From an uncultured Chloroflexia bacterium (GTDB lineage Bacteria > Chloroflexota > Ktedonobacteria > Ktedonobacterales > JADMIN01): a stretch of DNA of 32,000 nucleotides. The position numbers and the translations under genes are program-made. The notes below the pieces were generated by a model. That model was not told where the DNA came from. It did not search any database and saw only the letters and a program-made list of their open reading frames with translations. The stretch lies in contig CAVRAI010000003.1 in the NCBI GenBank assembly GCA_963718915.1, forward strand, positions 300,001 to 332,000, in the 5' to 3' direction. Below, in pieces: positions 465 through 29,765 of this stretch. Within the stretch, counting starts at the first letter, position 1. The number at the start of each line of letters is the position of its first letter.

Positions 465-1006
465 GACGAGACCTCTTGCCGTGTCGTTTAGAGTCGATCT
501 GGGTCGATCTGGCCATAGAAACGGGGCATCATGCTCCCGCCATGCGCCGCGTCAAATAGCGCTCTTGCCTGTGTGGCGACGCCCATGGCCGAAACTACGG
601 TGAGTCTATCATGGCCACATAAGACATAACATCGGCAATAGTACCGGATTTCAGGCTGATTGTGGCGCTATGAAATGCGCGCCACATAGGCTTCCTGGGG
701 TGCGCGCATATGCTACCTTTCACATGAAACGCAGTGCAATGATCGAGACAGACTCCTCACGCAAGCCAGACTCAGGCCAAACGCGCGGGCGCATGGAGCA
801 CGGTGGAAGCTGGCTCTCGGCCTATGGCTAGGCCTGAGCGCGCCATCAGGTAAGTCCGAAACACCCTCCACAAACTCTCCTTCAGAGTTAGGACTTGTGC
901 GGCTATACGGGTTACTCTGGTGGCGTACATTTACACATCATGCGCCATGGCTGCCAGCGTAGCGACGAGTATTAGAAGAGTACTTCAGGCGGTCGGGGCA
1001 TTCGCA

Positions 1007-1047
1007 TCCAGAGCGTATCCAGGCGTATCCAGAGCGTATCCAGAGCA
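1007..1047 (+). repeat. tandem direct repeat, 10-11 bp unit TCCAG(A)GCGTA x3.8
   Basis: Read directly: tccagagcgta tccaggcgta tccagagcgta tccagagca. It ends about 3 nt before the GGGAGAAG RBS of the 1065 ORF. Confidence 0.85.
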
Positions 1048-1064
1048 CAGGGAGAAGTGGTCTC

Positions 1065-2510
1065 ATGATTACAACAGTCACCCCACGCAGTACTGAGACG
1101 CAGACGTATACCTGGGATCGGGACTTGTCGTCAAAGACGGCGAGCTATGCCGCTGGTAAAGCGCTCCGTGCGAGAACCCCCCGCACCAGCCATGCCGAAT
1201 GGGCGCCAGGCGCCAAACGCTCCGATCCGATCAGCCTCCTGCAAGAAGAAAACAGGTCCCGATTGAAGCAGTTGGTGCCTATCCGATTTGGGCGGATGGC
1301 GTTATCGCCCTTTGCGTTCTATCGAGGAGCCGCCAATATCATGGCGAATGATCTGGCGACAACTCCCACCTCAGGCATCATGGCGCACCTCTGCGGTGAT
1401 GCGCATATCTGCAACTTCGGCGCATACGCCGCTCCGGATCGTCGGCTGGTCTTCGATGTGAACGACTTTGATGAGACCCACGTCGGACCATGGGAATGGG
1501 ATCTCAAGCGGCTGGCTGTCAGTGTTGCCCTGGTCGGTCGGCAGAACAGCTACAGCAGCGCAATATGCAGGCAGGCTGTGCTAAAGTGCGTTCAGAGCTA
1601 TCGCGAGAGTATGCAACGGTTCGCGCAGATGACGCACCTTCAGGTATGGTATGCCCGCATCGAGATAGAGACACTCCTCGCGATGGCGCGTAACGCCGGT
1701 ATACGCAGGCATGCGGAAGCGCGGATCGAAAGGCGTGTGAAAAGAGCCGAGGCGCAGGCAGTCAGGCATACAAACCTGGACACCTTTCCGAAGCTGGCCG
1801 AAGAAGTCGATAGACGATTCCGCATCAAGGATGAGCCGCCTCTCATCTCACATTTCGATCCATTGGACCCCGATCTGGAGAGCCTGGACGCAGACCAGTG
1901 GCATACCTTTGTCCGAGAATACCTGGCGTCCCTGCCAGACGAGCTGCGCATGCTGGTCAACCGCTATCGCGTCGTTGACCTCGCCCAGAAGGTCGTGGGG
2001 GTGGGGAGCGTCGGCACGCGCTGCGCCGTCGTCCTGGCATTAGGCGGAGCGGAGGGTGACGATCCACTGTTCATACAGATCAAGGAGGCGTCCGCCTCGG
2101 TACTCGAGCCTTATCTGGGGGCAAGTCCATATCCGAACCATGGACAACGGGTGGTCGTGGGTCAGCGTTTGATGCAGGCAGCCAGCGACATCCTTTTGGG
2201 CTGGTCGACGATGGATGGGCGAGACTATTATTCGCGGCAGTTGCGGGATATGAAATTCTCGGCGGAGATCGAGACGATGCACCCCAAAATGTATGTCCTC
2301 TACGTTGGGTTATGTGGCGCAACCCTGGCGCGGGCGCATGCACGGACAAGTGATCCCGCACGAATCAGTGGATATCTGGGGCGCCGAGACACCTTCGACC
2401 AGGCCATCGCCACATTTGCCGAAGCGTATGCTGACCAGACCGAACGTGACCACGCGCGTCTCCTCGCGGCTATAAAGGATGGGCGCATCAAGGCGCAAAC
2501 CGGCGTGTAG
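1065..2510 (+). CDS. DUF2252 domain-containing protein
   Basis: 481-aa ORF with RBS GGGAGAAG. The segments LVPIRFGRMALSPFAFYRGAA...HLCGDAHICNFG...LVFDVNDFDETHVGPWEWDLKRLAVS match my recollection of the DUF2252 family signature. Confidence 0.7.
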   Translation: MITTVTPRSTETQTYTWDRDLSSKTASYAAGKALRARTPRTSHAEWAPGAKRSDPISLLQEENRSRLKQLVPIRFGRMALSPFAFYRGAANIMANDLATTPTSGIMAHLCGDAHICNFGAYAAPDRRLVFDVNDFDETHVGPWEWDLKRLAVSVALVGRQNSYSSAICRQAVLKCVQSYRESMQRFAQMTHLQVWYARIEIETLLAMARNAGIRRHAEARIERRVKRAEAQAVRHTNLDTFPKLAEEVDRRFRIKDEPPLISHFDPLDPDLESLDADQWHTFVREYLASLPDELRMLVNRYRVVDLAQKVVGVGSVGTRCAVVLALGGAEGDDPLFIQIKEASASVLEPYLGASPYPNHGQRVVVGQRLMQAASDILLGWSTMDGRDYYSRQLRDMKFSAEIETMHPKMYVLYVGLCGATLARAHARTSDPARISGYLGRRDTFDQAIATFAEAYADQTERDHARLLAAIKDGRIKAQTGV

Positions 2511-2597
2511 TCTCCACACCGTGCGTTGAGCGGGATACGCTCGGTGGAGATGGTCATGGCATTCCGCACAGGCGGCGTGGCAACCATCAGCCTGAGC

Positions 2598-2951
2598 CTA
2601 CTGCGTTGTGTCGCCTGAGGTGGATATTTGAGATCCCCGTCCGATTAGGCTTCTGAGTGCGCGATTGACCGCTTCTGAATTCGGAAAGTAGGCGCGCACA
2701 TCGGGATCCAGCACCACGGTTCCGGGGCGAGGCGTCACGTCACGCACCTCCGTCGTGCCATCACTGTGATGGATGACCATGGTATAACCATCGCGCATGG
2801 CCATCGCATGCTTGCCACGTACGCCCTGTGAAAAATCATACTCAGGGGCTATGCCTACGTCCTCCCTATCCTCCCTCTCGTTCTCATCGCCATTGTCATT
2901 GTCGTCTGGTCGGTCCTGTGCTCCCTGACCGCTAGCTCTCTGTTTGCTCAT
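2598..2951 (-). CDS. BrnA-like type II antitoxin (partner of the DUF497 toxin)
   Basis: Internal ATG at 2951 (MSKQRAS...) preceded by a GGAGAA RBS, 29 nt downstream of the toxin stop. It has the EYDFSQGVRGKH motif and a C-terminal VVLDPDVRAYFPNSEAVNRALRSLI, typical of antitoxins paired with BrnT. The upstream part of the 186-aa ORF overlaps brnT out of frame and is discounted. Confidence 0.65.
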   Translation of the reverse strand: MSKQRASGQGAQDRPDDNDNGDENEREDREDVGIAPEYDFSQGVRGKHAMAMRDGYTMVIHHSDGTTEVRDVTPRPGTVVLDPDVRAYFPNSEAVNRALRSLIGRGSQISTSGDTTQ

Positions 2952-2979
2952 AGGTTCTCCGCTCTGCTCTGGTTGCTGG

Positions 2980-3216
2980 TCAGCAACTAATGATGCGAAT
3001 GGTCTCGTCACGTTCGGTGTAGACGACGACGAGGAGACGTCCGCTGCTGGATTCTCCAATATCCACGAAACGATCCTCCTCATCTGAATGTGTCTCATCA
3101 ACAATGGTGAGTGAGAGAGGATCCGCAAAGACAGTTGCCGCTTCATCAAAACTGACACCGTGCTTTTGCTCGTTCAGGAGCGCTTTGGACTCGTCCCACT
3201 CAAATCTCGTGCCCAT
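2980..3216 (-). CDS. brnT: BrnT-family (DUF497) ribonuclease toxin
   Basis: 78 aa. FEWDESKALLNEQKHGVSFDEAATVFADP...RLLVVVYTERDETIRIIS is the DUF497/BrnT signature. Confidence 0.8.
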   Translation of the reverse strand: MGTRFEWDESKALLNEQKHGVSFDEAATVFADPLSLTIVDETHSDEEDRFVDIGESSSGRLLVVVYTERDETIRIISC

Positions 3217-3337
3217 ACTACCCCGTTTCGTGCTCGCGGGACGACCGCTACACCGCTACAGCGTAGCACAGAAATCTTGATAAGGAATGGTGCGTACAGG
3301 CGCAACTGACTCCGCAGGCTATTTGCTATACGGCCAA

Positions 3338-3353
3338 CGTTTCACGTGAAACG
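3338..3353. other. parS: parS (ParB-binding centromere-like site), CGTTTCACGTGAAACG
   Basis: Perfect 14-bp core GTTTCACGTGAAAC and a 16-bp perfect palindrome. It lies in the divergent intergenic region between brnT and the 3413 ORF and matches the conserved parS consensus tGTTNCACGTGAAACa. Confidence 0.8.
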
Positions 3354-3412
3354 GCAATTGACATATACAGAGTACCCTAATAGCTTGCCCTTGACGAACC
3401 TCATCCGCTACA

Positions 3413-4231
3413 ATGACGCGCGAGGGCGGCGCGTATTCTGAGCCTCCCGCCTGCTCGCGGAAGGACAAACTTTCTCCGATGATTCAAGACTGGCAAGAGC
3501 GTCTGCGTGCCTTCTGGAGCGCGAGCCGCCGCAATCAGATAGCCGTTCTCATATCAGGTGTCGTACTCGTTGCGTTGATCGTGGGCAGCATCTCGCTCCT
3601 CACAAATCGCGGTGGCGCATCGGCTAACGGGGTTGCCCAGGCGACCGCGACATCGCACCCGCAGACCACCACGCCCGCTGGCCCCACACCGAACACTGGG
3701 CCAACGGCTACACCGCTTCCGACGAAACCCGTCAGTCTGGCGGTCGTTGGGGGTACCGAGGCTGGCTTCACCGCCGTCTTTGGCAAACCCACGAGCACGG
3801 GTGTTGATAGTGGCAACAACCTGCCAACCGTGGACTACAAGGGGGGCGGGCCAATCGGCGGCATTACCATCGAGCTGGATAGTACCAAGAGCTATGTAGT
3901 CGGCGTGGTCCTCACCCCACCACAGAACACGCCGTTCGACTCGACGAGCGTACAGGTGATTTCGCCGCACTTCGCGCCGCCCGACGCGACTTACGATTCC
4001 GCTGCGCCCATCACCAATGGCTCCAACGAGGAGGTAGGCATCTTCCAGCTTGGCCACAGCGCACTGCTGGCCAATACCATCCCGGAGAGCGCCTTTACCG
4101 ACACCCAGGGTCAGCCAGTCACCGCCGGAACATTCTCCGTCGAGATTTACTACATCGAAGGGGGTGGCGGAAAACTGGCCTACGCCATCACCTTGCGTCT
4201 AGGGGATCAGCCCGCCAGCCCGTCAGCGTAA
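3413..4231 (+). CDS. hypothetical membrane-anchored / secreted protein
   Basis: 272-aa ORF with one N-terminal TM segment (IAVLISGVVLVALIVGSISLL) followed by a Thr/Pro-rich linker and a globular region. No family recognised. An alternative start (MIQDWQ) lies at 3479. Confidence 0.55.
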   Translation: MTREGGAYSEPPACSRKDKLSPMIQDWQERLRAFWSASRRNQIAVLISGVVLVALIVGSISLLTNRGGASANGVAQATATSHPQTTTPAGPTPNTGPTATPLPTKPVSLAVVGGTEAGFTAVFGKPTSTGVDSGNNLPTVDYKGGGPIGGITIELDSTKSYVVGVVLTPPQNTPFDSTSVQVISPHFAPPDATYDSAAPITNGSNEEVGIFQLGHSALLANTIPESAFTDTQGQPVTAGTFSVEIYYIEGGGGKLAYAITLRLGDQPASPSA

Positions 4232-4246
4232 TAACTTAGCGATGGC

Positions 4247-5167
4247 CTACGGTACTGGCCGGAGCGTATGAAGCAGGTCCGCCTCGGCGAGTAGCCCGCG
4301 CAGGCGCACACGCTCGCCCTCATTGAGCGGCGGCAGCGGACGGCGTGGCGCGCCACCGTAGTGCGCCACGAATTCGAGCGCGGCCTTGAGGCCCGCAACC
4401 CCAAAGCCCGACGTGATGGCGGCGTTGACAGGGATCAGCCGCGCCTGGAGCGCGCGCGCCTCCTCCAGTTTGCCCGTCTGCCAGAGGTCAACCAGTCGCA
4501 GGCATTCGCGGGGGGCGATATTGGCAAGCGCCGCGATGGCCCCCCGCGCGCCAACCGCCAGCGCTGGCAAGAGAAAACCGGCGCTGCCCGCCAGCACGAC
4601 AAAGCCCTCGCGCGCCTCGGCAACCACTTGCGCCATCTTGGCGACATTGCCCGAGCTATCCTTGAGACCAATGATGTTGGGATGCGCCGAGAGAGCGATC
4701 ACCGTTTCGGCGTCCAGATCAATACCAGCCGCGTTGGCAGGCATGTTGTAGATCATCACGGGAAGTGGGCTGCCATCGGCTACCGCCAGATAGTGCGCCC
4801 GCAGGGTGAAGCCATCCATCCTTGGGCGATAGTGGTGCGGTGGCAGCACCAGCGCCACATCAGCGCCAGCCTCCGCCGCCAGATGGCACAACGCGAGCGT
4901 GGCCCGCGTCGAGTTGTCGCCAACCCCCGCCAGCACCTGCGCCTCCGCGCCCATCTCTTCGCGCACCGTCGCGATCACCCGTCGCCGCTCGTCTGGGTCG
5001 AGGTGTACCGCCTCGCCATTCGAGCCAAGCGCGACGATATTGGCGATCCCCGCCGCCTTCAGTCGCTTCAGATGTTCGCGCAGTGTCGCCAGATCGAGGT
5101 CTTCGTCTTCGTCGAAGAACGTCGGAACCGGAGGATAGATGCCAGCGATGGTTGGTGATGTGTTCAT
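4247..5167 (-). CDS. dihydrodipicolinate synthase family (DapA-like) class I aldolase
   Basis: Start taken at MNTSPTIAGIYPPVPTFF. Supporting segments are ALGSNGEAVHLDPDERRRV, MIYNMP and GLKDSSGN (Schiff-base lysine context). The substrate cannot be assigned from sequence. Confidence 0.8.
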   Translation of the reverse strand: MNTSPTIAGIYPPVPTFFDEDEDLDLATLREHLKRLKAAGIANIVALGSNGEAVHLDPDERRRVIATVREEMGAEAQVLAGVGDNSTRATLALCHLAAEAGADVALVLPPHHYRPRMDGFTLRAHYLAVADGSPLPVMIYNMPANAAGIDLDAETVIALSAHPNIIGLKDSSGNVAKMAQVVAEAREGFVVLAGSAGFLLPALAVGARGAIAALANIAPRECLRLVDLWQTGKLEEARALQARLIPVNAAITSGFGVAGLKAALEFVAHYGGAPRRPLPPLNEGERVRLRGLLAEADLLHTLRPVP

Positions 5168-5174
5168 CTCGTCC

Positions 5175-6722: not shown

Positions 6723-6887
6723 TCCCGTTTCCACCTTCCCCACTTCTACCGATACAGCCGACGCCCCACAAGCATCGGGCGCACTGTGCCATGGCGAGTA
6801 TGCGCCAGAACGGCCCGCGGCGCATGGCCAGCCCATTCCTTTTATCGTAACAGCAGGGGTGCGGGCTGTCCAGCAGGAAACCCTACC

Positions 6888-6903
6888 TTTTACACGTGAA
6901 ACA
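6888..6903. other. degenerate parS-like site TTTTACACGTGAAACA (14/16)
   Basis: The right half-site and the CACGTG core are perfect; there are two mismatches in the left half. It is intergenic, between the divergent M20 peptidase gene and the valS leader. Confidence 0.5.
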
Positions 6904-6937
6904 GTGACCCAATGCCACGTAAGACGGATACGGCAGC

Positions 6938-6967
6938 TTGACAGGGGCATACGACGTTGGCTATAGT
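6938..6967 (+). promoter_or_regulatory. sigma-70-type promoter of the valS leader
   Basis: TTGACA (6938-6943), an 18-nt spacer, then TATAGT (6962-6967), read directly. Confidence 0.6.
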
Positions 6968-6973
6968 GTCGGC

Positions 6974-7370
6974 AACGGTCAGCCGATGCTGGCCGCTCCG
7001 TTGGGAGGAGTACGCGCAGCAGCGCCGCATAGAGAGTGGGATCGCGTGAGGCAGGTCACGCGGCTGAAAGTCCCGCCAGCGCCGATACGCGGAAGGTCGC
7101 CCAGCGAGAACAATGACTGAAGAAAGCCCACCAGGTGGGCGAGTAGATCAGTCCGGGAAAGCCCGTTACAGCGATGCCCTGATTCAGCGCGCATATCGTG
7201 CGCCCGTCGGGGAAATAAGCGCGTCGGAGCGGCAACGTCCCGGCGTATTCGAGGTGGTACCGCGGAAGGCCGCGTGCGGATTCCCTGAAGCTTCGGCGAC
7301 GGAGCATCAGTGGCATATCTGACGAGCTCGCCCTTTCGTCCTCGCGGAGGACGGAGTGGGCGTTTTTTGT
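6974..7370 (+). promoter_or_regulatory. T-box riboswitch leader (valine specifier) controlling valS
   Basis: T-box sequence GAGGUGGUACCGCG at 7251-7264, including UGGU. An AGAGAG (AG-bay-like) element lies at 7031-7036 and an F-box-like CCGUUA at 7162-7167. The candidate specifier is GAAG-GUC-G at 7092-7099 (GUC = Val). An intrinsic terminator follows directly at 7329-7370, and valS begins 57 nt later. Confidence 0.85.
7329..7370 (+). terminator. intrinsic terminator of the T-box attenuator
   Basis: cgccctttcgtcctc / gaggacggagtgggcg forms a ~15-bp stem with one bulge and a GCG loop, followed by TTTTTTGTT. Confidence 0.8.
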
Positions 7371-7426
7371 TGCCCGTTTTCAGGGCTACATGCCCCGCCG
7401 CGCATCCCACCAGAAGGAGAACCGCC

Positions 7427-9890
7427 ATGACCATGGCACAATCACTGGCAAAGGCCTATGACTCCAACACCGTGGAGCCGCGCCTGAGCGAGCGCTGGCA
7501 GCGCGAGGGCATCTATCAGTTCGACCGCGCCAGCGATCAGCCCGTCTACGCCATCGACACGCCGCCCGCCACCGTCTCTGGTCACCTGCACCTGGGCCAC
7601 GCCTATTCATACACCCACCCCGATATCATCGCGCGGTTCTGGCGGATGAACGGCTACAACGTCTTCTACCCGATGGGCTTTGACGACAATGGGCTGCCCA
7701 CCGAGCGGCTGGTGGAGAAGCGGCTGGGCATCACGGCGTCCGCGGTGGGGCGCCAGACGTTCATCGAGCGCTGCCTGGAGGTGGGCATCGAGGCCGAAGA
7801 GGAATACCGGACACTGTGGCAGCGGCTGGGTCTCTCGATTGACTGGCGCTTCAGCTATCGCTCAATCGACACGCTCTCGCGCCGTACGTCACAGCAGTCT
7901 TTTCTCGACCTCTACCGCAAGGGCCTGGCTTATCAGCAGGAGGCGCCGACCATCTGGTGTCCCCTATGCCAGACGGCTATTGCGCAGGCCGAGCTGGAGG
8001 ATATCGCGGGGTTGACAACGTTCTATACGCTGGCGTTTGCGCTGCCCGACGGCGCGACACTGCCAATTGCGACAACGCGCCCAGAGCTATTGCCCGCGTG
8101 CGTGGCCGTCTTCGTACACCCCGACGACGAACGCTATGCCAGCTTCATCGGCTCCGAGGCGCAGGTTCCGCTGATGGATCGCACCGTGCCCGTGCTGGCT
8201 GACCCGCTCGCTCGTCCGGAAATTGGCACGGGCGCAGTGATGTGTTGCACCTTCGGCGATCCGACCGATGTCACCTGGTGGCGCACACACCAGTTGCCAC
8301 TACGGATGATACTGGGCCGCGATGGCCGCCTGACAGCCGATGCGGACGACCTGGCGGGGCTGACCCCCAGTGAGGCGCGCGCGCATATCATCGAACAGTT
8401 ACGGGCGTCGGGCGCGCTGCTGGGCGCGGAGGAGCACGCCCAGTCGGTGCGTGTCCACGAACGCTGCGATACCCCGGTCGAGTATCTGGTGACGCGGCAG
8501 TGGTTCATTCGCGTGCTCGATCACAAAGAGCGGCTACTGGCGGCGGGAGAGCAGATTCGCTGGCATCCGGCGCAGATGGCGGCGCGCTATCGCGAGTGGG
8601 TCGAGAATCTCAAATGGGACTGGTGCATCTCGCGCCAGCGCTACTTTGGCGTGCCCTTCCCATTGTGGCGCTGCGACGCCTGTGGCGCGATTCTTCTAGC
8701 CGATGACGCCGACCTGCCGATTGATCCAACAGACGACACAGCCCAGATCAGCCTGCGCATGTGGTAGCGAGAGCTTCACGCCTGAGCGCGACGTGATGGA
8801 TACCTGGGCGACATCCTCGATGTCGCCGCAGATCGTCGGCCAGTGGCTGTCCGACCCGGCGCTTTACCAGCAGGTGTTCCCGCTCACGCTCCGTCCGCAG
8901 GCGCACGAGATCATCCGCACCTGGGCGTTCTACACCATCGTCAAGTCACTCTACATGTTCGACACCCTCCCCTGGCATGAGGTCGCCATCTCCGGCTGGG
9001 GGCTGGCGCCGGAGGGCGCGGGCAAGATCAGCAAGAGTCGCGGTGGCGGGCCGATGACACCGGAAGCGATGATCGGCAAATACTCGGCCGATGCGGTGCG
9101 CTACTGGGCGGCGAGCACCGGCTTTGGCAAAGACACGATTATCAGTGAAGACCGCATTCAGGCCGGCGCGAAACTCGCGACCAAGCTCTGGAATGTGGCG
9201 CGGCTCAGCGAGCGCGTGCTGGCAAGCTATTCACCATCCGGGACAACGCCAGTGCTTGCGCCAACAGATCGCTGGCTGCTGGCGCGGCTGCGGCGGCTGG
9301 TCGAGCGCGTGACGACGCTTCTCATTGAGTACGACTACGCCACAGCCAAAGCGGAGATCGAGAGCTTCTTCTGGGCAACGCTCGCCGATAACTATCTGGA
9401 GCTTGCCAAGATGCGGCTCTACGATGCGGCTGATCCGCTGGCCGAAGGCGCGCGCTATGCCCTGCGCGCCACGCTGCTGACCGTGCTCAAGCTGTTCGCG
9501 CCGTTCCTGCCCTACGTCACCGAGGAGATCTATACGACGCTCTTCACGGACGAGGTCGGCTCGATTCACCGCTCCGCCTGGCCAACGCCGGATTCGGTGC
9601 CCGCAGGTGATGGAGACGATGATGCGATGATGGCAGCGGGCGACATGATGGTGGCGATTGCGACGGCGGTGCGCCGCTACAAGAGCGAGCATGGCCTCTC
9701 GCTGGGCCGCGAGCTGGCGCGACTTCAGATTGCAGTCGAGGACCACACGCTGGCGGAGTCATTACGGGCGAGCCTCATCGACCTGCGCAGCGTGACCCGC
9801 GCCACGACGGCTGAGGTGAGTGACCAACTCGATCCATCGTTGCATGCATTAATGGCTGAGGGTACAGTGCGTATTGCCATCGAGCCGTGA
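7427..9890 (+). CDS. valS: valine--tRNA ligase, reading frame broken near 8742-8744
   Basis: ATG at 7427 with an AAGGAGA RBS. The HIGH region reads PPATVSGHLHLGHAY. The track splits the gene into 7310-8767 and 8703-9890. The second frame continues with CACGSESFTPERDVMDTWATSS and the KMSKS-like GKISKSRGG. The two frames join if one C is added to the CCC run at 8742-8744. Confidence 0.9.
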
Positions 9891-9895: not shown

Positions 9896-9911
9896 TGTTT
9901 CACGTGAAACG
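9896..9911. other. parS: parS site TGTTTCACGTGAAACG (15/16)
   Basis: Perfect 14-bp core, 6 nt after the valS stop, in the 37-bp gap between convergent genes. Confidence 0.8.
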
Positions 9912-9927
9912 TTGGGGGCCAACGCTG

Positions 9928-10887
9928 CTAGGAGGAACGCTGGCCCCAGGCGACGTAGAACGGGGCGACGCAGCGCGCCTTCGGCTGGTTCACATACGCC
10001 TGCGCCGCCACACACATGTTCTGAAACTCTTCCCTGGTGGCGATCCCCATGGACGCGATCACGCCTTCCAGGGCGCGTATGCCTGAGAAGAAGTCGGCCT
10101 CCATCATCTTGCCAACGCGCTCGCCCCATCCGCCTAGCGGGATAGCCAGGTCGCGCGTGCCGACCTGCGTCAGGCGCGCCCGCTGGAGTAGCTCGCCGAC
10201 GTGGCGCCCAAAGTTGGCGTCTATGCCACGCCGCTGCAGCATCTCGGTACCCCATGCCAGCAGCTGATCCAGGGCAGGGCCGCCGTGCTCTTCAGGGCCA
10301 GCCTCCACCAACTCGATCCAGCCGCCGGGGCGTGTCACACGCACCAGCTCGCGCACCACGAACTCCCAGCGGTCGGCGGGGATCGCCAGAAACATCAGCC
10401 GCATATGGGTGAAATCGAATGTGCTTTCGGGGAATGGCAGACCTTCGAGAACATTGGCGGGCGTAAAGGCGAAATCGCCCTGGCTACCGGCAGACGCTGT
10501 ATCCGAACTTGAAGATGGCCGATTGATATCGACCCCCACAACCTGCGCCCTGGGAAACGTCTGCGCCATCTCGCGCGCCCACCGGCCAGTGCCACAGCCC
10601 ACGTCGAGAATGGATCGCGGACTCTCCAGCGGCGCGGCGAAGTTGCCCCGAAAGGCGTGGCGTAACAGATAGTGTTGGAAGTCGAGGCGGTTGATCTCCT
10701 CGGAGTCCCGGGGCAGCGCATAGGGCACACCCACCGCGTGCTTGCGGCCACCAACAAAGCCATCCGTAGATATCCCCGACTGCTGTTGATCTCGCCGTCG
10801 CCTGCCAAACCATCGCATCGATAGTGTCCCCTTACTCACTAGCGCCACATCGAAAATATGCCGAAAACGAAGCTGTCGCAACGGCAT
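9928..10887 (-). CDS. class I SAM-dependent methyltransferase
   Basis: ILDVGCGTGRWAREMAQTFP is SAM-binding motif I, followed by VVGVDIN. An alternative start lies at 10818 (MRWFGRRRR). The substrate is unknown. Confidence 0.75.
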   Translation of the reverse strand: MPLRQLRFRHIFDVALVSKGTLSMRWFGRRRRDQQQSGISTDGFVGGRKHAVGVPYALPRDSEEINRLDFQHYLLRHAFRGNFAAPLESPRSILDVGCGTGRWAREMAQTFPRAQVVGVDINRPSSSSDTASAGSQGDFAFTPANVLEGLPFPESTFDFTHMRLMFLAIPADRWEFVVRELVRVTRPGGWIELVEAGPEEHGGPALDQLLAWGTEMLQRRGIDANFGRHVGELLQRARLTQVGTRDLAIPLGGWGERVGKMMEADFFSGIRALEGVIASMGIATREEFQNMCVAAQAYVNQPKARCVAPFYVAWGQRSS

Positions 10888-10953
10888 TCAGGCGCTGATC
10901 CTCATTGTACGACGGCAGAATGCCTCGCGCTCAGCATGCGCCCCATCATGGAG

Positions 10954-12460: not shown

Positions 12461-12476
12461 TGTTTCACGTGAAACT
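12461..12476. other. parS: parS site TGTTTCACGTGAAACT (15/16)
   Basis: Perfect 14-bp core in the 130-bp gap between the M50 protease stop and the Nramp gene start. Confidence 0.8.
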
Positions 12477-16595: not shown

Positions 16596-17027
16596 CCAAC
16601 GCGCGCGCGATCACCTGTGATATGCGGCAGGCGAAGTGGATGATGGCCGCCTAACCTGCCGCGTATGGGAAATGTTTCACGTCAACTACCCCATGGGTAA
16701 ACCCAGGGGCTTGCAGCTAGCCCGGAACGACAAAGCCGCCGCGTCTGGCCGATTGACGGCGGCCCGGCAGAACCGAAGCCCTGCCGCGTGTGCCTCATTG
16801 GAGGCTGTACGTCAAACATTTTACCCCGGCAACGATTCCTGCCGGGAACCCGCGAATGTTCAGTTGGGGAGGTGCGAGGAACCTTGTGCAAACCGTTCGC
16901 TCCGCCAAAGCGGAGTGCCTAAGCACACAGGCAGTATACCACAACAAGCGGGAGTGCGGCGCTTACCCCTCACCGGAAGATAGGGCCTCCGCGCCGGAGA
17001 AAGGGTGAAACGCGCCCGCGCATCGCG

Positions 17028-18422: not shown

Positions 18423-18639
18423 ACTGCTCCCCTGACCGCGCCAAGTGTAACACAGGTTGCCAGAGAGTGCGCGTGGGGTTTCTCACATATTGGCAGGGAG
18501 GCGAATACTTCCAATTTCACAACCTGCGAGGGAATAGGTCACCAGGCTTTCCGCTTTTGCGAACTGTGCGTACAATTATTCTATCAGTGCCACAAGCAAA
18601 GGGCTGCGATTCCAGTTGAGCCAGAGACTGAGGAATACC

Positions 18640-19635
18640 ATGTCAAACAGATCGTTGCTGATAGAGTCCGCTGCAACGCTGAAATACAATGAGGCCCTTG
18701 AGACGCTGCCCGAACATGTGCTGGCATTAATGGAAAGCAACGATCAAACACTATTGCCAGCATTAGCGAAAAACCAGCAGGCGACGCAAGCCATTGAGGC
18801 AGTGATTCAGAACCTCTACACACATCACACACTTCTCGACGGCGATGGTAGGGAGATGGATGATGTGCCCGATGAGAGTGTCCATCTCATTGTCACCTCT
18901 CCGCCCTACTGGACTCTAAAACAATATCCGCATTCTCAAGGTCAGCTTGGAGACATCCAGGCCTATGATGCCTTTCTGGAAGAGTTGGACAAGGTCTGGA
19001 GGCATTGTCTGCGTGTACTCGTACCGGGCGGGCGACTCATTGTTGTAGTCGGCGATGTCTGTCTCCCGAGGCGCCGCTACGGCAGGCATGTCGTCTTCCC
19101 TTTGCACGCAAGCATCCAGGAACACTGCCGCAAGATAGGGTTCGACAACCTCGCGCCAATTATCTGGCATAAGATCGCCAACGCGCAATTCGAAGTCGAG
19201 GGCAATTCAGGGTTCCTGGGGAAACCCTACGAGCCGAACGGCGTCATAAAGAATGACATTGAATACGTGCTCTTTCAAAGAAAACCGGGAGGGTATCGGA
19301 GTCCTTCGCATGTCGCCCGGATCTTGTCGCTGATTCCCAAGGAAGCTCACCAGGAGTGGTTTCAGCAAATATGGTCGATCCCAGGAGCATCCACTCGTCA
19401 CCATCCCGCTCCATACCCTCTGCCGCTAGCTGAACGCCTTGTGCGAATGTTCTCCTTCGTTGGCGATACGGTCCTTGATCCATTCATGGGAACAGGGACA
19501 ACAAACCTGGCTGCAGGCAAGTGGGGGCGAAACAGCATTGGCATTGAAATTGAGGCCGAGTATTTTGACATGGCCGCCCGACGCCTACGAACTCTCCAGG
19601 CATCACAACTTACCTTTACCGTTACCACTGCTTGA
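18640..19635 (+). CDS. beta-class DNA methyltransferase (N4-cytosine or N6-adenine; PF01555-like)
   Basis: Motif IV IVTSPPYW precedes motif I LDPFMGTGTT, which is the beta-class order. The ATG at 18640 follows a GAGGAA RBS; the track ORF begins at a TTG at 18616. Local GC is ~50% against ~65% in the flanks. Confidence 0.85.
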   Translation: MSNRSLLIESAATLKYNEALETLPEHVLALMESNDQTLLPALAKNQQATQAIEAVIQNLYTHHTLLDGDGREMDDVPDESVHLIVTSPPYWTLKQYPHSQGQLGDIQAYDAFLEELDKVWRHCLRVLVPGGRLIVVVGDVCLPRRRYGRHVVFPLHASIQEHCRKIGFDNLAPIIWHKIANAQFEVEGNSGFLGKPYEPNGVIKNDIEYVLFQRKPGGYRSPSHVARILSLIPKEAHQEWFQQIWSIPGASTRHHPAPYPLPLAERLVRMFSFVGDTVLDPFMGTGTTNLAAGKWGRNSIGIEIEAEYFDMAARRLRTLQASQLTFTVTTA

Positions 19636-20402
19636 AGGATGATTGCGTGATTAGCCATCCACAAGATTACTCGCGCATCTTTCGTGATGCGGTTACATCA
19701 TTTTGGCAGACCAGGCAGGCGCAAGGAGAAAAAGGGATACCCGATCAAGGAAACAGGAGCCAGGCCACGGGTGGTCGGCAAATGGATGGCTTCGCGGGAA
19801 CAATCGGCGATTTGCTCGTGAATGCTGGGCTGAGCAGATCGCTAATCCACCATGCCAGGCAAATGGCAGCGACCCCACAGGAGCAGACTGGGGTAGAACT
19901 TCCCGGCTTCTATCGTGCAACAAAAAAGTGGGATATCGTGATCGCCACTGACGGGAACCTCCGCGCTGCAATCGAGTTAAAATCCCTCATTGGCCCCTCG
20001 TTCGGTAACAACTTCAATAACAGGGTTGAAGAAGCTGTTGGCAGCGCGGCGGATATCTGGCGAGCCTACCAGGAAGGTGTTTTTCGCCCTTCTCCTCAAC
20101 CCTGGTTAGGATATCTATTCTTGATAGAGGATTCCATAACTTCGCAAAGACCTGTCAGAATCGCCGAACCCCATTTCCCTGTGCTCAACGAATTCCAATC
20201 CACAAGCTATACAGGTCGAGCCGAACTCCTCTGTTTAAAGTTGCTGAGAGAGCGGCAGTACAATGCCGTGAGTTTTCTTGTGTCAAACAAAGACCAGTCA
20301 GGTGCTGAGAGCAATTACACAGAACCCAACATTGAGCTTTCAGCTGAGGCATTCTTTGTCGGTTTGCTAAATCACCTCGGCTTGCCGCAAACCAACTCTT
20401 GA
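19632..20402 (+). CDS. type II restriction endonuclease, PD-(D/E)xK fold (XhoI/PaeR7I-like from memory)
   Basis: Its start overlaps the methylase stop (cTTGA); an alternative GTG at 19647 follows GAAGGA. WDIVIATDGNLRAAIELKSLIGPSFGNNFNNRVEEAVG contains D...ExK. I recall the GPSFGNNFNNR block from the XhoI/PaeR7I family but cannot verify it here. Confidence 0.7.
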   Translation: MKDDCVISHPQDYSRIFRDAVTSFWQTRQAQGEKGIPDQGNRSQATGGRQMDGFAGTIGDLLVNAGLSRSLIHHARQMAATPQEQTGVELPGFYRATKKWDIVIATDGNLRAAIELKSLIGPSFGNNFNNRVEEAVGSAADIWRAYQEGVFRPSPQPWLGYLFLIEDSITSQRPVRIAEPHFPVLNEFQSTSYTGRAELLCLKLLRERQYNAVSFLVSNKDQSGAESNYTEPNIELSAEAFFVGLLNHLGLPQTNS

Positions 20403-21791
20403 TTCCGAAACTCGATTGGCGCGCATCTCACGATAGACGCCTGCCACCCACCAGAGGAGCCCGCCCGCCAGCAGCACCAGCAGCGGCTCGATGGGCGCAC
20501 GGAAGCGAGGCGAGCCATAGAAGGCGACATTCTCGAGGATGGTCAGTCCGATGGTGAGGTAGACTGGCAGAAGGTGTCGCCATTTGCGCCGCCAGGTGAC
20601 GACCAACCCCAGCGCCGCCAGCAGGAAAACCACGTACGACATCACCGGAAGCAGGCCGTCACGGACAAATATCGTTGAAGGACGGTCTGGATACTGCGCA
20701 AAGGGGTGCCCCTCATAGGCCGTGGCCCAAGGCGTCCACATGTGGACCAGATGTATCCAGAGCAGCGAACGGGTCTGCTCCGGATGCGCCTCGATCCAGT
20801 TCACCGTCCGTTGCGCGAGTGCCTGTTCGTCCGCCGCCGTATGGTCGTGAAAGTCGGAGTCGAGACTGGACGACAACGACCACAGCCCATAGAGAATATC
20901 GCCCGGGCGGTCCACCGTGTCGTTGTACGATCCCGCGAGGGTCTTGTAGACGTTCGACGGTGGCAGCGGTGAATGGGTCACGCGCGAGGCGTAGAGCGTC
21001 CATGGGAGCATGAGGGCGAAGGCCAGCACCGCAACCAGCGCCGCACTCACGACCACTCTGCGCCAGGGCGCCAGTTTGAAGAGGAGGGCGAGCAGAGCCC
21101 ACAGCACGAGCAGACCCAGCAGCAGCGTTCCCGTCGGGCGGGCCAGCGCCGCCAGCGCAAGCGAGACACCGCAGAGCACGATCCATACTCGCCGCGAGTC
21201 GCGCTGCATCCGCATGAGGAAGAAGAGAAAGGCGGTCTGGAGGAAGATATAGAGGGACTCGGTGTAGAGCCAGCCATCCCAGATAAACATCCCAGCGTAG
21301 ACGGCAGCGATGATGCCCGTCACCAGCGCGATGCGCCGTCCAAAGAGATCCTTCGCGATGAGGTAGACCAGCACGCACGTCCCCGACCCAAGAACGCAGC
21401 AGGCGAGGCGAGCATAGCGGGTGGCATCTCCCAATACCGCGTAGATCGCGGCCATGACCATAGGCCAGAGCGGCGGACGATAGACGGGGACATGCTGCTG
21501 GGGGAAGCAGTAACAGTGCTGGTGGACAAGGCTCCTGGCAAGCTCGTTGTAGATCACCGCGTCGAACATGGGCTGATAGCCAGCGGCAACCGTCTTGTTG
21601 AAAATGATCCGGACGATGAACGCGAGGCAGAAAACGACCGCCATTGGAATATACTCGCGCAACCTGGACCAACGCCATCGATGCGCGATCTGGGTCGCGC
21701 GGGCGCTGAGACGATGACGCTGAGCGTCAAGCCAACCGTGCATGCGCGCCTCCTGCCTCGCCACATGGCGAACCCGCGTGCATCGGGACAA
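20367..21791 (-). CDS. glycosyltransferase family 39 (ArnT/PMT-like) membrane protein
   Basis: 474-aa polytopic ORF with an N-terminal FNKTVAAGYQPMFDAVIYNELARSL loop typical of GT-C / PMT_2 enzymes. The start codon is uncertain (alternative at 21743). The 3' end overlaps the endonuclease gene by 36 nt. Confidence 0.6.
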   Translation of the reverse strand: MSRCTRVRHVARQEARMHGWLDAQRHRLSARATQIAHRWRWSRLREYIPMAVVFCLAFIVRIIFNKTVAAGYQPMFDAVIYNELARSLVHQHCYCFPQQHVPVYRPPLWPMVMAAIYAVLGDATRYARLACCVLGSGTCVLVYLIAKDLFGRRIALVTGIIAAVYAGMFIWDGWLYTESLYIFLQTAFLFFLMRMQRDSRRVWIVLCGVSLALAALARPTGTLLLGLLVLWALLALLFKLAPWRRVVVSAALVAVLAFALMLPWTLYASRVTHSPLPPSNVYKTLAGSYNDTVDRPGDILYGLWSLSSSLDSDFHDHTAADEQALAQRTVNWIEAHPEQTRSLLWIHLVHMWTPWATAYEGHPFAQYPDRPSTIFVRDGLLPVMSYVVFLLAALGLVVTWRRKWRHLLPVYLTIGLTILENVAFYGSPRFRAPIEPLLVLLAGGLLWWVAGVYREMRANRVSESRVGLRQAEVI

Positions 21792-21815: not shown

Positions 21816-25161
<3,346 letters not shown>

Positions 25162-25166
25162 AGTTG

Positions 25167-26045
25167 TTATTGCTCCGTCTCGAATTCGTAGACATCTACA
25201 TCATTGACCGGGTTGTAGCCGATCTCCTGATAGACGTGGTTAGCGGTCGGGTTGGCCAGGTCGGTAAACAGGTAGCAGAAAGCGCGCCCGCTCTCCAGCA
25301 GATGCTGGCTTAGTATCGCGACACACGCGCTGGCATAGCCCTTACCGCGATGCTCCGGCGGCGTATAGACCGGCCCAATGCGAACACCGCGCAATGTCGG
25401 ATTACCATACGAGACGAACGAGACGGGCACGCCGCCATCCTCCCAGAGGTAGCCGCCGCGTGTCGATGAGGCGAAGTAGCGATCCACCCACTCCACCGCG
25501 TCGAGGCGCTCCTTCGGCCCCAGCGCCTCAGCCGCGAACGCTTCGAGCCAGCGCGCCAGCAAATCGCGGTCAGACTCTATGGGGCGGCGGTAGCTCCCAG
25601 GCACATTCGTCACCGGAATAACCGTTTCCAGCTCGTATACTCGCTCCTGGACGGCTAGATGTTCCGCCAGCCCTGTCTGCGCGCGCCAGCGCTCGGCGAA
25701 GAGCCGCGAGACCGGCACGGGCGCATGAACACCGGGCAGGCTGTTGTGATAACGCGACCAGAGATCAGCGGCGATCAGCCCCAGCGCCGCCGATGGATCG
25801 ACGGCGTACTCCGGTGCGATCAGCGAGAGGATGACGTTGAACGGTGGCGTGCGCATGGCGACCAGCAACACCGCGCCCTCATCCTCCACCAGCGCCATGT
25901 AGGGTAGCTCGTCGGCGGGCATGGGGCCGCGCGGCAGCGTTGAGAGCAGGCCAAGGATCAGGCAATGCGTCGCCTCATGCGCGAGCAGATACGGCTCGAC
26001 CCGCGCCGCAAACTCTCCAATATCACTCAAGCGCTCAAGTTGCAT
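25167..26045 (-). CDS. GNAT family N-acetyltransferase
   Basis: The C-terminal domain has the acetyl-CoA motif [11 protein letters not shown]...[18 protein letters not shown]. The ORF is 292 aa and sits between carA and carB. Confidence 0.6.
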
Positions 26046-26121
26046 GCCTGACCTCTTCGGCTGGCTGGATAATCATCGTAGCAAGCAACATACCCTGCTC
26101 GCTCTTTCGCCTCGTCACTGG

Positions 26122-27297
26122 CTATACCGACGCGACCGGCAACGCCACCCGACGGTGCTCGCCGACCATCGCCGCGAAGCGGTCGAACAGATATTGATTA
26201 TCTTCCGGGCCGGGCGCGGCCTCAGGATGATACTGCACCGAGAAGACCGGCAGCGTCTCATGCGCCATCCCCTCGACACTGCCATCCGACAGGTTGATAT
26301 GGCTCACGTAGAGGCCGCTCTCGGCGGGAATCGTCGCCGCGTCTACCTGGAAGTTGTGATTCTGCGAGGTCACCGTCACCCGCCCGGTGCGTACCTCGCG
26401 CACGGGATGGTTGACGCCGTGGTGGCCAAACAGCAGACGGCTGGTGCGCGCGCCCGCGGCCAGCCCCAGAATCTGGTGGCCAAGACAGATACCCATCAGC
26501 GGTACCTTCTCCTCCCAGACCAGCGCGCGCGTGAGCTCGACCAGGTTCGCCACACTCTCGGGATCGCCCGGCCCATTAGAGAGCAGCACGCCATCGGGGC
26601 AGATGCGGCGCACATCGGCGAGGGTCACGGTATGCGGCGCGATAACGACCTCCAGCCCGCGCCGCGCCAGACTGCGGGCGATATTCTGTTTATAGCCGGT
26701 GTCAATCAGCAGGACGCGCGGCGCCCCGACCGGCGCTGGCTCGTCCGCCTTCCAGGTATCCGCCTCTTTGATCGAGACATCCGCGACCACATCGAGATCG
26801 GTGACGGTATGCACCTGATTCGCCTCGGCCACCAGCGCCGCGATGTCTGGCGTCTCGCCCGCCTCATAGACCCGCAAGACGCCGCGCAGGGTGCCATGTT
26901 CGCGCAGGTGGCGCGTGAGCGCGCGGGTATCCAGCTCGCAGACGCCAGGGATGCCGTTGGCGGCCAGATAGTCATCTATCGAAGCGGAGGCGCGCCAGTT
27001 GCTATAGTCATCGCTGGCCTCACGCACAATCAGCGCGGAGAGCCACGGACGGCGCGACTCGACATCGTCCAGGGTAACACCGTAGTTACCAATCAGCGGG
27101 TAGGTCAGAACAACCATCTGCCCGCGATAGGATGGGTCGGTGCAAATCTCCTGGTAGCCCGTCATGCCCGTGGCAAAGACGACCTCGCCCCGGCGTCCAT
27201 GGCGCATCGCCTCAATCGCGCCGAACGGCCGCCCGGTAAAGGTTGCGCCATCTTCCAGCGTTAGCACCGCGCTCCGCTCGCTCCGTTCCCATTCCAT
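26122..27297 (-). CDS. carA: carbamoyl-phosphate synthase small (glutaminase) subunit
   Basis: Start at MEWERSERSAVLTLEDGATFTG. GEVVFATGMTGYQEICTDPSYRGQMVVLTYPLIGNYG matches the family, and GICLGHQ carries the catalytic Cys. Confidence 0.9.
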   Translation of the reverse strand: MEWERSERSAVLTLEDGATFTGRPFGAIEAMRHGRRGEVVFATGMTGYQEICTDPSYRGQMVVLTYPLIGNYGVTLDDVESRRPWLSALIVREASDDYSNWRASASIDDYLAANGIPGVCELDTRALTRHLREHGTLRGVLRVYEAGETPDIAALVAEANQVHTVTDLDVVADVSIKEADTWKADEPAPVGAPRVLLIDTGYKQNIARSLARRGLEVVIAPHTVTLADVRRICPDGVLLSNGPGDPESVANLVELTRALVWEEKVPLMGICLGHQILGLAAGARTSRLLFGHHGVNHPVREVRTGRVTVTSQNHNFQVDAATIPAESGLYVSHINLSDGSVEGMAHETLPVFSVQYHPEAAPGPEDNQYLFDRFAAMVGEHRRVALPVASV

Positions 27298-27340
27298 ACT
27301 GTTGCCCTCCCGGTCTCTGCTAGCGAACCGCCCCGTCTGT

Positions 27341-28759
27341 TTAGTCTGCCGTACCTGCCTCATTCGCCGCGTCATACACCACGGCGCCATCGAGCAGTGT
27401 CATCCGCACGCGCCCGCGAAGTGGAACGCCCGCCAGCGGTGTGTTGCGCCCGCGTGAGGCGAACTGCTCTGGGTCAACCGTCCACGCCTCATCAGGATCG
27501 AAGATAACGATGTCCGCCGCCGCGCCCGGCTTGAGCGTTCCCGCCTCCAGTGCCCAGGCCCGCGCGGGCCGCGACGTGAGGGCGGCAATCAGCGTCGCCA
27601 GCGGCAGTGTGCCTGCCCGCACCAGCGCCAGCAGCGCCGCCAGCGCCGTCTCCAGCCCGGAGATGCCGAACGCCGCCTCGCCATACTCGCAGTCTTTATC
27701 CACCTGTGTGTGGGGCGCATGATCGGTCGCGATAGCGTCAATCGCGCCATCGAGCAGACCTGCCAGCAACGCCTCACAATCGGCGGCTGTGCGGAGCGGT
27801 GGATTGACCTTTGTATGCGTGTCGTAGCGCATGCCCGGCGCAAGCGTGATCCCTTCGGACGCGAGCGCCGCCGCCAGTGGGCCAGTGCGCTCGCCCGCCA
27901 CCCAGCTATCGGTCAGCAGCAGATGATGCGGCGTGACCTCCGCCGTGACAGGCAGTCCCTCGGCCTTCGCCGCTCGTATCAAGTCCACCGATCCCGCCGT
28001 GCTGAGGTGCGCCGCATGGTAGCGCGCGCCAGTCAGCCGCACCAGCGCCAGATCGCGCGCCAGCATCACCTCTTCACCCGCCGCGGGCCAGCCTTGCAGA
28101 CCCAGCATCGTCGCCACCGCGCCCTCATTCATGACGCCGCCACCAACGAGGTCCTCATCCTGGCAGTGCTCGACGACTGGAACACCCAGCGGCGCGGCGT
28201 ATTCGAGCGCGAGCCGCATCAGACGGCTGCTGTGGACGGGTCGGCCATCGTCGGAGAAGGCGACCGCGCCTGCCTCGGTCAGTTCGGCCATCTCGCTCAA
28301 CTCGCGACCATCCTCGCCCTTGCTGATGGCGGCGATGGGGCGCACGTGGGCAGGCGCATCCTTCGCCCGCGCCAGCACAAATTCCAGTGTTGCACGTGAA
28401 TCAATCACCGGGTTGGTGTTGGGCATGCAGCAGATGGTGGTGAAACCGCCACGCGCGGCGGCCCGCGCCCCGCTGGCAATCGTCTCTTTGCCCTCGAAGC
28501 CCGGCTCGCGCAGATGGGCGTGCAGATCGACGAAGCCTGGCGCCAGCACCCAGCTCGCGGGCAACTCCACCATGCGGAGCGGCGCATCCGACTCCGCCAC
28601 TCGCGCCGCCAGCGTATCAGCGTCGGTTCCGTGCGCGACGATACGCCCTTCGCGAATCAGCAGCCAGCCCACCGCATCCAGATGCTGGCCTGGATCAATA
28701 ATGCGCGCCCCAGTCAGCGCCAGTTGTTCTCGTCGCGCCTGTTCTGTCACGCCGCTCAC
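27341..28759 (-). CDS. pyrC: dihydroorotase
   Basis: PGFVDLHAHLREPGFEGKETIASGARAAARGGFTTICCMPNTNP. The GTG start overlaps the pyrB stop (GTGA). Confidence 0.9.
   Translation of the reverse strand: MSGVTEQARREQLALTGARIIDPGQHLDAVGWLLIREGRIVAHGTDADTLAARVAESDAPLRMVELPASWVLAPGFVDLHAHLREPGFEGKETIASGARAAARGGFTTICCMPNTNPVIDSRATLEFVLARAKDAPAHVRPIAAISKGEDGRELSEMAELTEAGAVAFSDDGRPVHSSRLMRLALEYAAPLGVPVVEHCQDEDLVGGGVMNEGAVATMLGLQGWPAAGEEVMLARDLALVRLTGARYHAAHLSTAGSVDLIRAAKAEGLPVTAEVTPHHLLLTDSWVAGERTGPLAAALASEGITLAPGMRYDTHTKVNPPLRTAADCEALLAGLLDGAIDAIATDHAPHTQVDKDCEYGEAAFGISGLETALAALLALVRAGTLPLATLIAALTSRPARAWALEAGTLKPGAAADIVIFDPDEAWTVDPEQFASRGRNTPLAGVPLRGRVRMTLLDGAVVYDAANEAGTAD
28388..28403. other. degenerate parS-like site TGTTGCACGTGAATCA (14/16) inside pyrC
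   Basis: The CACGTG core has one mismatch in each arm. Confidence 0.4.
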
Positions 28760-29757
28760 TCCTTCGCCGCCTTCGCCGCCTTTGCCGCGAGTGTCCCAGC
28801 GACCATCTCCAGCACGGCCATGCGCATGGCGACGCCGTTGGTCACCTGCTCTTCGATCACCGAGGCTGACCCGTGGGCCACCGCCGAGGCAATCTCGACA
28901 CCTTCGTTCATCGGCCCCGGATGGAGCACCAGCGCGTCCGGTTTCGCCAGCGCCAGCCGCTCCTCAGTCAGCCGGTAGCGCTGCCCGTATTCGCGCAGCG
29001 ACGGCAACAATCCCGCCTGCTGGCGCTCACGTTGCAGTCGCAGCACCATGATCGCGTCGGCGTCCTTGAGCGCGCGGGCGCAATCCGTCTCGACGGTGAC
29101 ACGCCGCGGCGCGCCCGTTCCCGGCACGCGGCGCGCCGCGTATAACTCGGCGGCGGCTGGCGGCAGAAGCGTTCGCGGGCCACAGAGCACCACCTCCGCG
29201 CCCGCGGCGGTGAGCGACCAGACGTTCGAGCGGGCGACCCGGCTATGCAGGATATCGCCGAGGATGACGACGCGCGCCCCCGCCACCATCTCCAGGTGAC
29301 GCTCCATCGTGAAGAGATCGAGCAACGCCTGCGTCGGGTGGGCATGCCAGCCATCGCCCGCGTTCACCACCCCGCCGCGAATGGCGCGGGCAATGGCATC
29401 AGGCGCGCCCGACTGGTTGGAGCGGACGACGATGATATGCGCGCCGAGCGCCTGGAGCGTCTCGACGGTATCGCGCAGCGACTCGCCTTTGGTGACGCTG
29501 CTGGCCGACGCCGTCACGTTCACGACATCCGCGCCCAGTTTCTTGCCCGCAAGCTCGAACGAGACCCGCGTCCGGGTGCTGTTCTCGTAGAACAGGTTGA
29601 CCAGCACGCGGCCCTGAAGCGCCTTCAGTCGCATGTCGGGCTGGCGCATCAGCTCGCGCATCGTAGCGGCGCGATCAAGCAACGCACGCAATTCGTCGGG
29701 CGTCCAGTCGTCCAGGTCGAGCACATGCTGGCGCGCCGGAAGCGCCCGATGTTTCAC
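28756..29757 (-). CDS. pyrB: aspartate carbamoyltransferase catalytic subunit
   Basis: NLFYENSTRTRVSFELAGKKLG, HPTQALLD and HPGPMNEGVEI. The GTG start at 29757 lies in the centre of a perfect parS. Confidence 0.9.
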   Translation of the reverse strand: MKHRALPARQHVLDLDDWTPDELRALLDRAATMRELMRQPDMRLKALQGRVLVNLFYENSTRTRVSFELAGKKLGADVVNVTASASSVTKGESLRDTVETLQALGAHIIVVRSNQSGAPDAIARAIRGGVVNAGDGWHAHPTQALLDLFTMERHLEMVAGARVVILGDILHSRVARSNVWSLTAAGAEVVLCGPRTLLPPAAAELYAARRVPGTGAPRRVTVETDCARALKDADAIMVLRLQRERQQAGLLPSLREYGQRYRLTEERLALAKPDALVLHPGPMNEGVEIASAVAHGSASVIEEQVTNGVAMRMAVLEMVAGTLAAKAAKAAKE

Positions 29758-29765
29758 GTGAAACA
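29750..29765. other. parS: parS site, perfect 16/16 TGTTTCACGTGAAACA, overlapping the pyrB start codon
   Basis: Exact match to the fully symmetric parS consensus. The central CACGTG supplies the pyrB GTG start and an overlapping upstream-frame TGA. Confidence 0.85.

Follow-up and report, generated by a model that had tools for sequence, protein, structure and literature searches.

Does a palindrome that returns again and again among ordinary genes mark the centromere of a bacterial chromosome? The question is raised by a stretch of 32,000 nucleotides (called the window below) from contig CAVRAI010000003.1 of an uncultured Ktedonobacterales bacterium of the phylum Chloroflexota. The window has 62% guanine plus cytosine (GC), and its gene content is that of an ordinary chromosome. 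The initial annotation of this DNA read the palindrome as parS, the site bound by the partition protein ParB, and the coordinates and sequences it gave are all correct. In our analysis the palindromes are, very probably, a chromosomal parS centromere cluster on which ParB would be loaded. What was computed for this purpose is the identity with the consensus, the non-randomness, the clustering with its edges, the conservation of the positions, and the selection on a 14-bp core.

Repetition, identity and conservation of the palindrome

How far does the repetition go beyond chance? The 14-mer GTTTCACGTGAAAC occurs perfectly five times, at 3339, 9897, 12462, 24822 and 29751. The analytic expectation at the GC content of the window is 4.8e-5, and 100 dinucleotide-preserving shuffles gave no match at all. 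When up to three mismatches to the 16-mer TGTTTCACGTGAAACA are allowed, there are eight sites (S1 to S8 in Table 1) against 0.06 in the shuffled sequences, and a weaker match of 12 in 16, CCTTTCACATGAAACG, is present at 716. The half-site GTTTCAC is found 14 times against 2.0 expected, and 13 of these copies belong to palindrome sites. The repetition was thus rightly described as more than chance. A terminator hairpin and coding constraint are ruled out along with chance, for the stem has neither a loop nor a T-run and the contexts of the sites are unrelated.

Which known element does the motif match? It matches the 16-bp inverted repeat of parS, tGTTNCACGTGAAACa: the 14-mer core is perfect in five copies, of which one is perfect over all 16 positions, and the cores of S2 and S5 are perfect in relatives. 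The forms GTTTCACGTGAAAC and TGTTNCACGTGAAACA were reportedly described as parS across bacteria by Lin and Grossman in 1998 and by Livny in 2007. They are the parS of Bacillus, Corynebacterium and other bacteria (PMC7083940). At the level of sequence, the proposed identity with the conserved chromosomal parS consensus is therefore confirmed.

Might the palindromes nevertheless be sites for some other DNA-binding protein and not a segregation centromere? A Noc-type ParB paralogue that organises the nucleoid could be imagined, or a transcription factor specific for a palindrome centred on CACGTG. In line with this, the DNA around the cluster shows no parB gene, and several sites lie in intergenic regions that contain promoters, for example S2 between divergent genes. 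However, the 14-16-mer of the window matches canonical parS exactly and differs from the Noc-binding site, which is ATTTCCCGGGAAAT. The contexts of the sites are functionally unrelated, among them the interior of carB and of pyrB and a gap where two genes converge, which does not fit a regulon; and a single 31-kb block is what one expects of parS, whereas Noc sites are scattered. We regard another protein as a very unlikely owner of these sites, and the reading as parS is kept in what follows.

Are the sites maintained in related bacteria? The comparison set consists of six to eight related metagenome genomes, which at this locus have 75-90% DNA identity to the window and are collinear with it. 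A search with MurJ gave seven loci at 84-96% identity, all from metagenome-assembled genomes (MAGs) of Ktedonobacterales, Ktedonobacteria or uncultured Chloroflexia. The same palindrome positions are found in the syntenic Ktedonobacterales MAG loci (Table 1). In the spacers that hold S4 and S5, where 45 bp on each side were aligned from 6-7 genomes, the 14-mer is the sole invariant block in otherwise diverged DNA; in carB the 14-mer of S6 is invariant in seven genomes amid variable neighbouring synonymous positions. These alignments are direct evidence that purifying selection acts on the motif itself, independent of its surroundings. The comparison of sites across related genomes that the initial annotation had called for thus finds sites that hold their positions and a motif that is non-random and under selection.

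The single copies have had different fates. The match at 16673, listed earlier as a degenerate copy with 13 of 16 positions, is no such thing but the left half of a once-perfect parS whose right half stands at 17005-17012, and an intact (T/C)GTTTCACGTGAAAC(G/A) occupies the position of S5 in all six relatives L001-L006. The orthologous sequence of S7 drifts with the coding sequence (in L014 it reads GTCGCCCGTGAATC), and this site is probably not maintained as parS. The counterpart of the match at 716 in relatives is CCCTTCACGCGAAACG, with three core mismatches, and judged by sequence it is unlikely to be functional as parS. The variant of S2 in the window reflects either decay or an assembly error. 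The assembly is rich in frameshifts, which are found in carB near 24730 (24700-24760), in the class-I aminoacyl-tRNA synthetase (aaRS) gene at 8700-8770, in the fused chorismate mutase-prephenate dehydrogenase (CM-PDH) gene at about 31500, and several times in the first 230 bp of pyrB (29770-29975). The broken genes are whole in some relatives, with an aaRS of 819 amino acids (aa) in L008, a carB product of 1111 aa in L016 and a PyrB of 405 aa in L014, while L014, another long-read MAG, has carB broken in a similar way. These frameshifts are most likely long-read assembly errors and not pseudogenes, therefore single-base differences in the window, that in S2 included, need caution.

The DNA beside the sites is variable. 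About 800 bp next to S1 (region 2511-3313, with an open reading frame (ORF) at 2598-3158) is absent from L009. The methyltransferase gene beside S3 (9912-10953) is absent from L001 and from L002/L008, and L004 has a different 850-bp insert there (L004:15299-16148). With the insertion in S5 included, lineage-specific insertions lie beside or inside three of the five intergenic parS (S1-S5), which may indicate only that insertions are tolerated in spacers.

Table 1. Palindrome sites and other features of the locus. Plain positions refer to the window, and positions with an L prefix to loci of other genomes.
Feature	Position	Strand	Context	Sequence	State in the window	Other genomes
S0	outside the window, about 2.6-2.8 kb left of DUF2252		MFS/histidine-kinase junction (overlapping 3' ends)			L008:7201, L023:16991
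parS S1	3338..3353		intergenic, DUF2252/next gene	CGTTTCACGTGAAACG	perfect 14-mer	identical at orthologous position in L009, L012, L013
parS S2	6888..6903		intergenic, divergent M20 peptidase/class-I aaRS	TTTTACACGTGAAACA	two core changes	core perfect in four relatives: L002:17352, L004:19214, L006:17074, L008:17747
parS S3	9896..9911		intergenic, directly past aaRS stop codon	TGTTTCACGTGAAACG	perfect 14-mer	present at L001:7095, L004:16147; one core mismatch at L002:14322; no match at orthologous position in L006
parS S4	12461..12476		intergenic, Nramp/M50-like gene	TGTTTCACGTGAAACT	perfect 14-mer	14-mer the sole invariant block of the spacer in seven genomes
S5, left half	16673..16680		intergenic	TGTTTCAC	right half 324 bp away	
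Insert splitting S5	16681..17004	+	non-coding		junctions ambiguous by 2 bp (GT)	
S5, right half	17005..17012		intergenic	GTGAAACG		
parS S6	24821..24836		inside carB, codons E-F-H-V-K-L	AGTTTCACGTGAAACT	perfect 14-mer	
S7 (doubtful)	28388..28403		inside pyrC	TGTTGCACGTGAATCA		
parS S8	29750..29765		inside pyrB, linker codons A-V-S-R-E-T between zf-C4_ClpX and aspartate carbamoyltransferase (ATCase) domains	TGTTTCACGTGAAACA	perfect 16-mer, right-most site	identical at L014:8610; absent from L016
Relic (doubtful)	716..731			CCTTTCACATGAAACG	two core mismatches	
XhoI-family island	18494..20443					absent from all syntenic relatives
GNAT acetyltransferase gene	25167..26045	-	between carA and carB			kept in L014, L016
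pyrB	28756..29975	-	overlaps pyrR			L014:7617-8834; L016:7549-8772

Extent, gene context and possible function

Is the array a piece of something larger? It comprises nine positions in about 31.5 kb, with S0 just left of the window and S1 to S8 within it, and neighbouring sites are 1.4-8 kb apart among housekeeping genes. To see beyond the edges, about 64 kb around the locus was reconstructed from the window and the flanks of relatives. Left of S0 there is neither a site nor a half-site in 17 kb (L023/L024), and right of S8 there is no site in 12.6 kb (L014) and 14 kb (L016). At the density of the array itself, an empty flank of about 30 kb has a probability of 2e-4. Three non-syntenic control loci from more distant relatives also have zero sites. 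Given the site-free DNA on both sides and the empty control loci, the feature is probably a discrete bounded cluster, neither a sample of a genome-wide repeat nor a part of a much larger platform. Within the DNA compared, the motif is clustered rather than evenly dispersed, and the "very large ParB loading platform" once proposed shrinks to an array that ends at S0 and S8.

The same observations bear on a quite different explanation, which the first reading of the sequence had itself raised: the motif could be a generic dispersed repeat that merely resembles parS, like a repetitive extragenic palindrome (REP), an uptake sequence or the end of a miniature inverted-repeat transposable element (MITE), and the window would then be a typical sample of the genome. 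Genomes of Ktedonobacteria are rich in repeats and transposons (PMC3236041), which lends this idea some colour. Yet about 30 kb of immediate flank and the three unrelated loci are empty, the copies have no common sequence beyond the 16 bp, and their positions are orthologous across genomes, not variable. A dispersed repeat is very improbable here, and a bounded parS cluster is the explanation that we retain.

Where do the sites stand relative to genes? After the gene map had been corrected from the relatives, 87.5% of the window is coding, and three of the five perfect sites (binomial P = 0.016) and five of all eight (P = 0.0012) are intergenic. The five are S1-S5, while S6, S7 and S8 lie in carB, pyrC and pyrB. 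The intergenic bias noticed in the initial annotation is therefore real, but one of its examples is lost: the site at 29751 is not at a gene junction but within the pyrB frame, and it had looked like a junction because the N-terminal part of pyrB is masked by frameshifts. Such an enrichment is nothing unusual, since nine of the ten parS of Corynebacterium glutamicum are intergenic and a 16-bp palindrome is hard to fit in a reading frame.

How would such a cluster work? The following steps are drawn from established ParABS biology (reviewed in PMC7022226; PMC7083940), and by analogy they suggest, for the present locus, that ParB binds and spreads, that the sites act in segregation, and where they lie relative to oriC. 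Each 16-bp palindrome would be recognised by ParB dimers through their helix-turn-helix domains. ParB would bind cytidine triphosphate (CTP), close to a clamp and slide onto the flanking DNA. With a site every 3-6 kb, the sliding zones would fuse, and a single nucleoprotein complex some tens of kb long would cover the cluster and be segregated by ParA-ATP; SMC would probably be loaded there too. Redundant sites would make the centromere robust: although S5 was destroyed by a transposon and S2 has perhaps decayed, five perfect sites remain.

What weighs against a centromere at this place? There is no parA, parB, dnaA or DnaA-box cluster in the window or in the reconstructed 64 kb, whose flanks reach 20 kb to the left and 12 kb to the right. 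The lack of parB, dnaA and DnaA-box clusters in the window had been recorded from the beginning, and it now extends to the flanks in relatives. Furthermore, the background amounts to flanks of about 30 kb and, from more distant genomes, 43 kb of non-redundant control DNA, so that a second cluster or scattered sites may exist elsewhere. Other markers are silent as well: the ParB box II motif (GERRxRA) does not occur in the 329 kb of locus DNA scanned, DnaA boxes are at chance level, and the GC skew is uninformative as an origin marker. The lack of origin markers within 10-20 kb is nevertheless not evidence against the parS reading, because the cluster of C. glutamicum lies 73 kb from oriC.

One may then ask whether the cluster binds ParB mainly as a hub for SMC loading and chromosome folding, or lies far from oriC, and is not the origin-proximal partition site that the initial annotation suggested. 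The absence of parAB and oriC markers from about 64 kb around it would agree with this, and the C. glutamicum cluster at its distance of 73 kb is known to nucleate SMC-dependent arm alignment (PMC7083940). Such a hub would be a refinement of the centromere explanation and not an alternative to it; moreover, in studied species most parS are found in the 20% of the chromosome nearest the origin (PMC7022226). It is a highly improbable substitute, and the partition centromere is still the explanation that we favour.

The insert that splits S5

There is a further question, what broke S5? The two halves are separated by a 324-bp insert that is absent from all relatives, as seen when its junctions are compared with the empty site in L004. 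Neither the window nor the syntenic loci contain a further copy. The insert is nevertheless a mobile unit of its own: a second full-length copy, with the same ends, 78% identity and unrelated flanks, lies in a metagenome contig (L020:1223-1538), and the 5' hairpin motif recurs in two more contigs (L021:845-876 and 402-425; L022:1172-1203). In the two full copies available, the insertion lies between GT and GA, as CACGT|...|GAAAC in the window and ACAGT|...|GACAT in L020. Both begin with GTCA and have no target duplication and no terminal inverted repeats, and the two-copy consensus fold has subterminal hairpins. At nine base pairs the two copies differ by compensatory changes. Folded as a single sequence, the insert is no more stable than shuffled sequences (z = -0.7 and -0.9), so the evidence for a structure is solely the covariation between the copies.

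What kind of element is it? The best Rfam match for both copies is HEARO (RF02033), which starts at the first base of the element and reaches 13.7 and 16.7 bits, far short of the gathering threshold of 83; close resemblance is limited to the 5' part of about 35 nt. There is no ORF in the insert and no IscB ORF adjoining it, the neighbours being host genes that are conserved in relatives without the insert. With scores so far below 83 and no IscB ORF, the insert does not qualify as a member of the HEARO/IscB omega-RNA family. The ISC2/IS605B transposons of Ktedonobacter racemifer use a GT|GA or GT|GG target, make no target duplication, start with GTCA and carry subterminal hairpins (Kapitonov et al. 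2016, PMC4810608). The insert resembles these ISC/IS605B elements and HEARO in its insertion at GT|GA without duplication, its 5'-GTCA terminus, its subterminal hairpins and its first 35 nt or so, which are near the HEARO consensus, and differs from them in that it has only 324 bp and lacks iscB, tnpB and tnpA. It is thus a candidate for a non-autonomous IS200/IS605-superfamily (ISC/PATE) element that carries a stand-alone omega-RNA-like structure; such an element might be expressed as RNA and moved in trans.

In the metagenome contig of L021 (420-880, minus strand), two CCCCATGG(G/C)TAAA(C/G)CCAGGGG hairpins about 450 bp apart flank an ORF of about 60 aa. This pair may be a cargo-carrying member of the same element family.

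Then why was a parS site hit? Its core, CAC-GTGA-AAC, contains the target on both strands, so parS sites would be intrinsically exposed to transposons of the ISC/IS605B type. This suggests that canonical parS are natural targets of one IS200/IS605 class, although a single case is an anecdote.

Between S5 and S6, a low-GC (0.54) island holds the genes of an XhoI-family restriction endonuclease and of an N6/N4 DNA methyltransferase. Its absence from all syntenic relatives makes it probable that the island entered the parS cluster recently.

Gene content and comparison with known parS arrays

The genes of the window are DUF2252, DHDPS, an M20 peptidase, the class-I aaRS, the methyltransferase, Nramp, an M50-like protease, MurJ, a signal peptidase, the XhoI-type restriction-modification pair, a PMT-type glycosyltransferase, the CM-PDH fusion, and a pyrimidine operon with the order pyrR-pyrB-pyrC-carA-(GNAT)-carB. 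No tRNA gene or Rfam gene was found in the window. Two features of the pyrimidine operon may be added. A GNAT acetyltransferase gene is placed within it, and the PyrB (aspartate carbamoyltransferase) of this lineage, 405-407 aa in total, bears an N-terminal ClpX-type C4 zinc ribbon (zf-C4_ClpX). The GC content of cultured Ktedonobacteria is lower than that of the window, 49-54%.

How does the cluster compare with centromeres already described? We found no papers that deal with parS or the biology of ParB in Chloroflexota, Ktedonobacteria included. For this little-studied lineage with actinomycete-like cultured relatives, the locus gives a concrete, conserved centromere map with nine positions and defined edges, which could serve as a marker of the partition complex in imaging or chromatin immunoprecipitation (ChIP). 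The system itself is familiar. Clusters of such size are already known, and the present one is a fresh example of them.

The array was first called exceptionally dense, and large arrays of this 14-mer were taken as a hallmark of Streptomyces. Neither description survives the comparison. Ten parS lie within 35 kb in C. glutamicum and 22 within about 3.1 kb in Myxococcus xanthus (PMC3899335), and the host here belongs to Chloroflexota; a dense parS array is thus no pointer to Streptomyces. M. xanthus also has many parS copies, near the origin of a large genome, but these 22 copies lie next to parAB and are ten times denser than the array here.

Streptomyces arrays (Jakimowicz et al. 2002; PMC4852455) consist of the same 14-mer palindrome in many sites. 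There are 24 in S. coelicolor and 16 in S. venezuelae, the latter within about 200 kb or roughly one per 10 kb (PMC4852455), more numerous but sparser than here, where nine positions share about 31.5 kb and the edges are sharp. The hosts are mycelial and sporulating, a life style that is common to cultured Ktedonobacteria, while the lineage here is uncultured. Is the cluster then linked to mycelial growth and sporulation, as was speculated at first? The link fits the taxonomy, for cultured members of Ktedonobacterales are actinomycete-like with mycelia and spores (PMC3236041), but the same design occurs in C. glutamicum, a unicellular rod. A wider scenario may be drawn, which we think rather unlikely: Ktedonobacterales would independently use multi-site parS at least 10-20 kb from parAB/oriC markers to distribute many chromosomes into spores, as Streptomyces does, and GTGA in the parS core, being the preferred target of the ISC/IS605B (IscB/TnpB-type) elements that abound in these genomes, would bring recurrent transposon attack (one of nine sites destroyed), against which redundancy would serve as a buffer.

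The closest counterpart is the array parS1-10 of C. glutamicum (Bohm et al. 2020, PMC7083940). The two differ in phylum, Actinomycetota there and Chloroflexota here, and in the kind of knowledge: that ParB binds, that it has spreading zones, that SMC is loaded and that the sites are redundant, one being enough, was shown by experiment there and would be expected by analogy here. Nine of the ten sites are intergenic in C. glutamicum and one lies in coding sequence, against at least five intergenic sites here (S1-S5), with S6 and S8 in coding sequence and S0 at overlapping 3' ends. Both arrays have the same 16-bp consensus of the Bacillus subtilis type, and both form one cluster, of ten sites in 35 kb there and nine positions in about 31.5 kb here. 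Overall, the design is almost exactly that found in C. glutamicum.

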